Counted from the first letter of the stretch, positions 770 to 2,591 are shown. The stretch is 64,000 nt of DNA from Dehalococcoidia bacterium (GCA_963555985.3 OY820591.1:2336001-2400000); one strand, 5' to 3'. The notes: a model not told the origin generated them from the letters alone. Numbers and translations are program-made.

Positions 770-1072
770 CTACCAGGAACTCTTGCGCACGCCCGGGAGC
801 AGGCCCAGTGAGGCCATCTCGCGGAAGGTGATCCGCGAAAGCCCGAACTTGCGCATGTAGGCGCGCGGGCGGCCCGTGACCGCGCAGCGATTCTTGAGGC
901 GGGTGGGACTGCTGTTGCGCGGCAACTGCTGCAACTGGAACTGAATCCGCTGCTTCTCGCCGGGCTGCTCGGTCTCGCGCAGCTGCTGCTTCAGCGACTC
1001 GCGCTTGGCCTTGTACTTCTCGTGCATCCTGCGGCGCTTCAGATCGCGGTGAATGTTGCTCTTACGGGCCAT
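770..1072 (-). CDS. rpsN: 30S ribosomal protein S14, long C-minus (Zn-independent) type
   Basis: MARKS...[49 protein letters not shown]. 100 aa with only one Cys, so no CxxC..CxxC ribbon. Confidence 0.97.
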
Positions 1073-1175
1073 ACAGTCCGGCTTTCTCTACCGATGCGCG
1101 ACGAAACTCGGGCGGCACATGCCCTCAGCCTACCCGCCAGCGCGGATAGAGGACAGTCGCCGCCGCTGCACTCGC

Positions 1176-1637
1176 TCACTCGCGCCGCTTGCGTTTCTCA
1201 ATCTCCCGGCCCTGCTTCTGCTCCAGCCGGCCCAGCGCGCGGCCTTTGTCGGGGTGCGGATCGATGCGAACGCCGTAGTTGACGCGGCCTTCGTGACCTT
1301 CGGGCAAGTACTCCGTGATGGGAAGACCTTCCTCATCGCAGAAGAGCAGTCAATGGCAGTACTTCCAGCGCTGCATCTCCTCGCAGGGGCAGATCCAGGT
1401 GGATTCCTTGACCTCTTCCGCCTTGTCCTCATAGAAGTTGCAGGGACAGAGCGGACGCCCGTAGTCGTCGATATGTTTGGCCAAGCCGATCACCAGAAAT
1501 TCGGTGATGTCGTGCTCGGGATGCAGATAGGACCCGCTCTTCTCCGCGAAGTTGCGGGCGAACTTCCACATCTTGTTCAGGTTCTTCTCCGACGCCTGCT
1601 GACGATCGTCGTCGCTGACTCGCTCGACATCAGCCAT
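1176..1637 (-). CDS. Ferredoxin:thioredoxin reductase catalytic subunit, selenocysteine-containing (UGA at 1352-1350), 153 aa
   Basis: Motifs CPC, CPC and CH-[TGA]-LLF match the FTR CPC/CPC/CHC-LF signature. The frame stays open for 57 more codons (LLFCDEEGLPITEYLPEGHEGRVNYGVRIDPHPDKGRALGRLEQKQGREIEKRKRRE) to TGA 1178-1176. A hairpin follows the UGA. Confidence 0.9.
1312..1342 (-). promoter_or_regulatory. Putative bacterial SECIS element
   Basis: mRNA UCUGCGAUG-A-GGAA-GGUC-UUCC-CAUCACGGA: stems GAUG/CAUC and GGAA/UUCC, a bulged A, and a G-leading 4-nt apical loop starting 22 nt after the UGA. Confidence 0.8.
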
Positions 1638-1694
1638 AAGTCACTCCCCGCCCGTGCCTGCGGCCCGCATCTGCGGAGCCTGTGTCCACCGTAC

Positions 1695-2591
1695 TCAGTT
1701 GTCGCTCTCCTGGCGTCCGCGCAGGAAGTTCTCTAGGTCTTCTATCAGCGCGTCGGCAGAGGGAAGGTCAGCTGCGCCACCTTGGGACTGCGCTTCCGGC
1801 GCGGCCGGTTCGGGCGCGGCCGCTTCCAGCCGCGCTACATATTCGCGCAGCTCGGGATTCTCGCTGAGCGCTTCCTCGAGCTGCGCGTGGAATCGCTGAA
1901 TCGCGCGATCCAGCGGCTCCAGATCGAGGCGCAGGTCAGTCATGTCGCCAACCACGCGAAGCAACGCCTGAGCGCCGACCGGGTTCGTGATCCCGGGCAG
2001 ATAGTGCGGCACCGAGGCCCACAGGCTCACGCCGCCCACGTCTCGCCGGCGGCAGTGATCGTGAAACACGCCCACGATCCCGCTCGGGCCTTCAAAGCGC
2101 GAGGGATGCATGTTGTAGCGCTCGGCCAACTGCGAATTGTTCGCCGAACCGGAGACATGCACCGGTCGCGTGTGCGGCGCGCCGCTGGCGACCGCGCCCA
2201 TCGAGAGCACCAGCTTGGCCCCGATCACATCCACCAACTCCGACATCGCGGCCAGATAGCGCCGCCAGCGATAGTGCGGCTCAATCCCCAGGCCGACGAC
2301 GATATCTCGGCGCGCGCCCGGGCGTGCGCGCAAATGCACGAACTCCGTGCGCGGCCAGACGATGATCCGTTCGCCGCGGTGGTAGCGCGCCATCGGTCGA
2401 GCTTCGGTGAAGTCGTAGAATTCCTCCGGGTCGATGCTGGCGAACGGTCCCGTGCCGTGCTGCTGGATCAGGTACTGGGCCGCCGTCGAGGCTGACTCGC
2501 CAGCGTCGTTCCAGCCCTCCCAGGCCAGAATCAGGATGGGATCGGTGAGATCGGGCAGGCGCTCGATTTGTAGGTCAGGTGAGGTGCTCAT
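1695..2591 (-). CDS. PAC2 family (proteasome assembly chaperone-like) protein
   Basis: ILAWEGWNDAGESAS, IDPEEFYDF..RP, GIEPHY.W, PHTRP, EGPSGIVG, SLWASVPHY, LREYV.RLE, IEDLENFLR. Confidence 0.9.
   Translation of the reverse strand: MSTSPDLQIERLPDLTDPILILAWEGWNDAGESASTAAQYLIQQHGTGPFASIDPEEFYDFTEARPMARYHRGERIIVWPRTEFVHLRARPGARRDIVVGLGIEPHYRWRRYLAAMSELVDVIGAKLVLSMGAVASGAPHTRPVHVSGSANNSQLAERYNMHPSRFEGPSGIVGVFHDHCRRRDVGGVSLWASVPHYLPGITNPVGAQALLRVVGDMTDLRLDLEPLDRAIQRFHAQLEEALSENPELREYVARLEAAAPEPAAPEAQSQGGAADLPSADALIEDLENFLRGRQESDN

Follow-up and report, generated by a model that had tools for sequence, protein, structure and literature searches.

A predicted single-selenocysteine relative of the ferredoxin:thioredoxin reductase catalytic subunit in Dehalococcoidia

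Does the UGA codon that cuts short a small gene of a Dehalococcoidia bacterium terminate translation, or is it read as selenocysteine (Sec, U)? The gene lies on the minus strand of a 64,000-nucleotide stretch of DNA, referred to here in its full length as the window, and its product is homologous to the catalytic subunit of ferredoxin:thioredoxin reductase (FTR). Under translation table 11 the open reading frame (ORF) occupies 1350..1637 (-); it opens with an ATG at 1637-1635 and ends in W-K-Y-C-H, directly before a TGA at 1352-1350. A preliminary description of the locus had proposed that this TGA stands exactly where FTR has the last cysteine (Cys) of a CHC motif. The sequence comparisons reported here argue that the early-stopping gene is a real selenoprotein gene, and that it encodes a single-subunit FTR relative with Sec in place of the cluster-proximal active-site Cys.

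Reading frame, active-site motifs and fold

When the TGA is translated as U, a single frame is obtained in which C94-H95-U96 is followed by LLF and 54 further codons (57 after the TGA), as had been described. The complete coding sequence then extends over 1176..1637 (-) and comprises 153 residues, with one internal TGA only and a terminal TGA at 1178-1176. A GGAG at 1644..1647 (-), read from the sequence 6 nt 5' of the ATG, is the likely ribosome-binding site. The predicted protein is called Sec-FTR below.

Sec-FTR matches the Pfam family PF02943 (FeThRed_B) over residues 20-103, a segment that spans the TGA, with a score of 87.6 bits (cut-off 22). With phmmer it retrieves the FTR catalytic chains 7bzk_A (E = 5.4e-25) and 1dj7_A (E = 8.3e-22). 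The alignment to 1dj7_A is ungapped, placing residues 16-101 of the query on residues 7-92 of the chain, and it pairs C64 with residue 55, C66 with 57, C83 with 74, C85 with 76, C94 with 85 and U96 with 87; the proposed coincidence of the TGA with the last Cys of CHC is confirmed by this pairing and by the translation. Three motifs are located in this way. The first, C64-P-C66, lies at 1440..1448 (-), and all 115 homologues share C64, P65 and C66; the second, C83-P-C85, lies at 1383..1391 (-), with C83 and C85 invariant in the same 115 homologues; the third, C94-H95-U96, lies at 1350..1358 (-) and includes the Sec codon, which pairs with Cys87 of 1dj7_A.

The FTR catalytic subunit is characterized by the signature CPC-X16-CPC-X8-CHC, with seven Cys/His residues. 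Sec-FTR displays it as C64-P-C66-X16-C83-P-C85-X8-C94-H95-U96, with Sec replacing the last Cys, and the spacing agrees with that of 1dj7_A. In FTR, residues 55, 74, 76 and 85 are reportedly the ligands of the [4Fe-4S] cluster, and residues 57 and 87 form the redox-active disulfide; Cys57 is said to be the exposed nucleophile, and Cys87 to become bonded, in the one-electron intermediate, to an iron of the cluster. C64 aligns with the cluster ligand Cys55, and C66 with the redox-active Cys57, of Synechocystis FTR. C83 and C85 align with the cluster ligands Cys74 and Cys76, and U96 with Cys87, the partner in the active-site disulfide that lies nearer the cluster. The GOS paper likewise describes the redox-active disulfide of FTR as being made by two Cys (Zhang and Gladyshev, 2008).

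An AF2 model built with 115 homologues has a pLDDT of 93.1 and a pTM of 0.86. It superimposes on 7bzk_A with a Z of 12.9 and an rmsd of 1.6 over 93 aligned residues (Foldseek E = 3e-8), and its residues 13-106 match FTR catalytic chains with Z 11.6-12.9, rmsd 1.0-1.6 and 39-45% identity. The PDB alignments stop at model residue 105-106, leaving a C-terminal extension of residues 107-153 (1179..1319 (-)), for which no PDB counterpart was found among the chains compared, plant and cyanobacterial FTR catalytic chains included. This extension is confidently modelled (block pLDDT 96-98 at residues 101-140) and has the conserved pattern PITEYLP..HEGR..YG...DP.PDKGRA; it is common to the Sec and Cys forms of the protein and is not Sec-specific. 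The preliminary description had suggested that it may stand in for the FTR variable subunit. A Pfam search of Sec-FTR found no second domain, be it rubredoxin or glutaredoxin.

The UGA codon and the sequence downstream of it

By arithmetic from a GC content of ~0.6, an open stretch of 57 codons is expected by chance in about one case in five. When the 66 nt past the UGA are folded as a single sequence, z is -0.61, and the fold is equalled or bettered by 57 of 200 shuffles. An Rfam scan of 1100-1700, with E up to 10, returned no SECIS family; its matches to mir-1677 (21 bits) and leuA-Halobacteria (12.7 bits) are at chance level. Taken alone, the ORF and the fold are weak; their significance derives wholly from comparative data.

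An orthologue with an in-frame TGA is present in 35 of 36 genomes of the same family, the 36th providing a contig-end fragment that covers residues 99-151. All 32 same-family loci that were translated read C-H-U. Across the class, the gene occurs in 104 of the 401 genomes sampled, and translation of 55 further loci gave 34 Sec and 21 Cys forms. Together with the 32 same-family Sec loci and three Cys loci, these 55 bring the total for the class to 90 orthologous loci, with TGA in the column of residue 96 in 66 and TGC or TGT in 24; the Sec forms are spread over several families. Only translated loci were counted, since a '1 TGA' flag can be due to the terminator. This was the case for G093 and G351, rejected as Sec forms when their translation identified them as Cys forms with a terminal TGA. 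Outside the 90 stand G268 (unpublished) and the same-family genomes for which no locus was retrieved. The alignment of homologues across the UGA that had been recommended as a check therefore delivered both Sec/Cys pairs (66 vs 24) and conservation downstream. An association of Sec with CPC (vs CAC) in the second motif was considered and dropped, the pattern being limited to family f1. One metagenome-assembled genome (MAG), G323, carries Sec and Cys forms on separate contigs (L089 and L100; C57 and C61), which may represent two paralogues or a mixed bin.

Purifying selection acts on the codons that follow the TGA. Over the 496 pairs formed by the 32 Sec forms, dN/dS is 0.138 upstream of the UGA and 0.215 for residues 109-145, and at least two codons are used in 19 of the 23 amino-acid-invariant columns past the UGA. 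Were the UGA a true stop, the product would be an FTR-like protein truncated to 95 residues, and the sequence past the stop would be untranslated or form a separate small ORF (TTG 1307). Gene callers do take this view: public collections contain 95-residue proteins ending in KYCH (P0066, which represents 75 member sequences, and P0075), and ORF lists give 1350..1637 and 1176..1307 as separate ORFs. Such a protein, however, would have only one of the two partners of the active-site disulfide, the constrained downstream frame aligns in register with uninterrupted Cys-form proteins, and the TGA has been retained at the column of residue 96 in 66 loci of several families. Termination at this codon is, in our judgement, very unlikely.

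The estimated contamination of the source assembly (7.5%) might raise the suspicion that the TGA arose through an error in sequencing or assembly, or that it marks a recent pseudogene. An identical TGA is nevertheless found in 65 other assemblies, and the sequence is under strong purifying selection both before and after the codon. The reads point in the same direction. Contigs of two DNA runs (two samples, with summed depths of ~46 and 422) and of two RNA-library runs were compared over 1000-1800, and among the 40 differences listed (22 more exist) there is no variant at 1350-1352 or at 1317-1337; TGC or TGT at 1352-1350, which the preliminary description had named as an observation that would refute it, was thus not seen among these differences in any of the four runs. 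Synonymous sites flanking the hairpin described below and the TGA do vary (1307, 1314 and 1344), and RNA-library contigs of 90-95% relatives span 1287-1412. We give practically no credence to an error or a pseudogene.

Besides the protein, the RNA downstream of the UGA appears constrained. The stem-loop GAUG-A-GGAA-[GGUC]-UUCC-CAUC, already described in the preliminary account, lies at 1337..1317; counted from the UGA, the first nucleotide of its loop is number 22. This putative apical SECIS hairpin (1317..1337 (-)) has a stem that starts 12 nt past the UGA. For residues 97-108, dS is 0.125, against 0.72 in the upstream and 1.08 in the downstream flank, and the hairpin falls within a fixed codon run, TGC GAT GAG GAA GGT CTT CCS ATC. 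Its codons GAT, GAA, GGT and CTT recur in 30-32 of 32 sequences, whereas the gene elsewhere favours GAC, GAG, GGC and CTC. Standard pairs account for 98.8% of the 248 pair cells, compared with 32-64% for slid partners; covariation is seen in one pair (GC 24, CG 4, UG 2, other 1), and six pairs are invariant and hence uninformative either way.

A hairpin of at least 4 bp in the same interval after codon 96 is present in all 66 Sec forms and in 8 of 24 Cys forms; the remaining 16 of 24 Cys forms have none there, and the main hairpin type is kept in a single Cys form, L086. Three types of hairpin, belonging to three Sec clades, occupy the same place: the main clade has (N)GGAA-GGUC-UUCC(N), f34 (six loci) has AUGGGGA-CGGGC-UCCCCAU and L088 has GAUGG-CGUGC-CCAUC. 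These comparisons support the prediction that a conserved RNA stem-loop shortly 3' of the UGA acts as a SECIS. Codon 100, a TGC at 1338-1340 that gives U-L-L-F-C, adjoins the hairpin on its 5' side. A Cys stands at this position in 59 of the 66 Sec forms, against 1 of 24 Cys forms, which have Val instead; it may reflect a constraint on the RNA or an additional redox Cys.

Decoding of UGA as Sec demands a dedicated machinery, and a search of the genome for selA, selB, selC and selD had been proposed. The source genome (96.4% complete) contains all of it: profile searches detected selA with 531 bits, selB with 349, selD with 366 and tRNA-Sec with 74, and ARAGORN reports a tRNA-SeC with the anticodon tca. 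The SelD of this genome (C1:1998583-1999506 (-), locus L011) is itself a selenoprotein, with an in-frame TGA (...CGG-U-GSKFG...) followed by stable hairpins, which differ from that of Sec-FTR, so that no genome-specific motif is held in common. Two copies of selA, both scoring 531.1 bits, are present (C1:1680550-1681896 and C7:5496-6842); the duplicate is probably a redundant contig, in keeping with the estimated contamination of the assembly.

Across the class, selA scores above the cut-off in 298 of 401 genomes. It is found in 52 of the 53 Sec-form genomes of the class sample, the exception (G123) being 95% complete and split into 100 contigs. The 23 genomes with Cys forms only comprise 8 that clearly lack selA and 15 that have it; all 8 gene-carrying genomes clearly without selA (8/8) have the Cys form. 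Sec is thus not obligatory where the machinery exists. One may still ask if the UGA is read as another residue, either Cys or Trp inserted by a near-cognate tRNA or the result of a lineage-wide code change. Yet TGA terminates Sec-FTR itself and many of its orthologues, and the complete Sec system, the hairpin at SECIS distance and the presence of Cys codons where selA is missing all argue for Sec; we consider another residue highly improbable.

The distribution of Sec and Cys was examined on an unrooted maximum-likelihood tree of 87 rows and 139 columns, in which the Sec/Cys column was masked. The tree requires at least four Sec/Cys changes, and an AU test of a group defined by the trait (Sec), run after the tree had been seen, rejects one Sec clade (delta lnL 160, p 3.8e-76). 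The direction of change is not readable, as the tree is unrooted. One Cys form (L086, G093:C14) is nested inside the main Sec clade of 57 rows. Its UGC is followed by the hairpin UCGGAA-GGUC-UUCCGA and its genome retains selA; by its sequence it looks like a recent Sec-to-Cys conversion with a fossil SECIS. The f34 Sec clade and L088 are placed among Cys forms, each with its own hairpin. Polyphyly of the Sec forms combined with three hairpins suggests repeated recruitment of Sec at one site. The occurrence of three hairpin types in three clades would be consistent with Sec having been gained three times and lost once, though turnover of the SECIS may have produced it too.

Candidate role in the source genome and proposed mechanism

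The neighbourhood of the gene offers no functional partner of the expected kind. Upstream lies a gene for a PAC2-family protein (1695..2591 (-); Pfam PF09754, 9.8e-50) and downstream that for ribosomal protein S14 (rpsN, 770..1072 (-); NCBIfam NF006477, 131 bits). The PAC2 gene adjoins Sec-FTR in 31 of 32 same-family loci, the remaining one being cut by a contig end, and all 32 loci contain S14. According to tblastn with the PAC2 and S14 proteins of the window, the order PAC2 / Sec-FTR / S14 (770-2591 (-)) is conserved within the family only, and the adjacency to PAC2 is absent from three Cys-form loci of other families (L053-L055). A Pfam search of 21 frames from the flanks of three Cys-form loci identified DprA, a CNNM/CBS transporter, a polyketide cyclase-like protein and a response regulator. 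Neither thioredoxin nor ferredoxin genes were found in these flanks or, in agreement with an earlier remark on the locus, beside the FTR gene in the window, where the neighbours are PAC2 and S14.

The same remark extended to the FTR variable subunit and to the way of life of the host, and here it holds genome-wide: PF02941, the variable subunit, has 0 matches in the source genome, a Synechococcus control being positive. The type II photosynthetic reaction centre (PF00124) was not found in it either, so the host, presumed to be non-phototrophic, is so as far as tested. Since PF02941 is missing, Sec-FTR is filed as a homologue of the FTR catalytic subunit (FTRc) and not as a classical heterodimeric FTR.

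Two thioredoxin genes are present in the source genome, at C1:2975276-2975575 (canonical) and C1:1533897-1534205, with scores of 113 and 87 bits. The best match in this genome to NADPH thioredoxin reductase (TIGR01292) reaches 31.9 bits against a cut-off of 343, which 13 of 14 control genomes pass. A TrxB-like match (E <= 1e-50) is found in 368 of 401 class genomes and in 14 of 25 same-family genomes; several of the 11 same-family genomes without one are single-contig assemblies, and the missing reductase of the source genome, whose assembly is not closed, could be an assembly gap. With thioredoxins present and both an NADPH thioredoxin reductase and a variable subunit missing, Sec-FTR is the best candidate for a reductase of thioredoxin or of a thioredoxin-like disulfide, and it may be the main thioredoxin reductase of this organism. 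The genome also encodes a second, Cys-only FTR-like paralogue (C1:68153-68404 (-), locus L197 ~1480-1825), with the motifs CPC...CVC...CFC in a ~117-residue frame that scores 32.6 bits against PF02943; it could act on thioredoxins too.

A real selenoprotein need not have thioredoxin as its substrate. Sec-FTR might instead act on an atypical thioredoxin-like protein or another disulfide, in the manner of the archaeal and bacterial ferredoxin:disulfide reductases (FDRs), which act on atypical thioredoxins (PMC6262447). The fold is also related to that of 4tpu (Z 6.5) and 7pwe (Z 7.5), no thioredoxin gene is linked in the loci examined, and a TrxB-like gene is present in most gene-carrying genomes of the class as well. 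Sec-FTR is, however, far nearer to true FTR catalytic chains, as its Z scores and identities show, than to the FDRs, and the source genome, which has thioredoxins, shares the lack of a TrxB-like gene with 11 of 25 family members. We therefore regard an FDR-like substrate as unlikely, though worth keeping in mind.

For a thioredoxin-reducing Sec-FTR, the following sequence of events is proposed. The UGA at codon 96 would be decoded as Sec by the organism's own SelA, SelB, SelD and tRNA-Sec, directed by the hairpin 12 nt past it. In the protein, C64, C83, C85 and C94 would hold a [4Fe-4S] cluster, as homology predicts, beside which C66 and U96 would form a selenenylsulfide in place of the Cys57-Cys87 disulfide. 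By analogy with FTR, ferredoxin would supply a first electron to break the Se-S bond; the freed C66 would then attack the substrate disulfide while the U96 selenolate resided on a cluster iron, and a second electron would allow U96 to resolve the mixed disulfide. We are highly confident of the explanation as a whole, namely a predicted 153-residue, single-subunit Sec-FTRc whose UGA is decoded under the direction of a hairpin, which carries a cluster and the C66-U96 pair, and which is a candidate thioredoxin reductase.

A broader reading joins these elements, and we put it forward tentatively, as possible but rather doubtful. In Dehalococcoidia devoid of NADPH thioredoxin reductase, Sec-FTR would be the sole thioredoxin reductase, so thiol homeostasis would need ferredoxin and selenium. 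Placed at the cluster-binding (Cys87) site and not at the substrate-attacking one, Sec would give rise to an Fe-Se-bonded [4Fe-4S] intermediate. At least three recruitments, each with its own SECIS, would then speak for an advantage in catalysis or oxygen tolerance, possibly replacing a protective variable subunit.

Significance and relation to known systems

Gene callers cut this gene at residue 95, and Sec forms are frequent among these Dehalococcoidia; the redox metabolism of these uncultured bacteria is consequently mis-annotated. A natural Sec at a cluster-binding residue would provide a built-in spectroscopic probe and a natural experiment on cluster-mediated disulfide cleavage. If the absence of NADPH thioredoxin reductase is real, the thioredoxin systems of the source organism and of the 11 relatives would be run on ferredoxin and selenium. 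Furthermore, Sec/Cys switching, a putative fossil hairpin and the match with selA together constitute a compact case of selenoprotein gain and loss.

Selenoproteins of the FTR type are not new. Homologues of FTR were described as a new selenoprotein family from GOS, with 2 Sec sequences and 10 Cys homologues (Zhang and Gladyshev, 2008). The preliminary description had mentioned Sec-containing FTRs from marine metagenomes, correctly so, although the published ones are of a double-Sec subtype. In the supplement, both GOS sequences read CPU...CPC...CIU, are ~100 residues long and have no extension (Zhang and Gladyshev, 2008). A true double-Sec FtrB of the same motif pattern exists in another genome of the class (L056 1372-1836 (-) = G056:C1), and closely resembles the two GOS reads. 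In a table of a 2022 review the family is entered under COG4802 with the motif CxU, and the 2026 BSepDB paper ranks Dehalococcoidia among the most selenoprotein-rich organisms. A single-Sec CH-U subtype with a C-terminal extension was not found described in the literature searched, nor were FTR terms found in one BSepDB supplement; homology-based catalogues may contain this subtype already.

Three groups of known proteins invite comparison with Sec-FTR, in addition to the FTR catalytic chains themselves. It resembles the latter in fold (residues 13-106) and in the spacing CPC-X16-CPC-X8-CH(C/U), and departs from them in having Sec for Cys87 and a C-terminal extension of ~47 residues, in the missing variable-subunit gene and in a host that is non-phototrophic as far as tested. 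The FDRs, exemplified by 4tpu of M. acetivorans and by the glutaredoxin-FDR fusion 7pwe, are likewise non-photosynthetic FTRc relatives without a variable subunit. They are, however, more distant (Z 6.5-7.5, 20-27% identity) and have rubredoxin or glutaredoxin domains of their own, which Sec-FTR lacks.

Closer in selenium use are the double selenoproteins of GOS and of NCBIfam NF041072 ('FtrB family double-selenoprotein'). They come from environmental bacteria as well, and share FTRc homology and a Sec at the last Cys of the third motif; they have Sec at both redox positions, whereas the Sec-FTR of the source genome keeps Cys66 and has one Sec, and its NF041072 score of 42.7 bits lies below the cut-off of 160. 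The third group consists of the Cys-form 'ferredoxin:thioredoxin reductase' orthologues of Dehalococcoidia, Chloroflexota and Methylomirabilota MAGs, which are 60-76% identical over the full length, extension included, and differ in having Cys at residue 96. FTR selenoproteins have thus been known since 2008, and what sets the predicted Sec-FTR apart from them is a single Sec at the cluster-proximal site together with the C-terminal extension.
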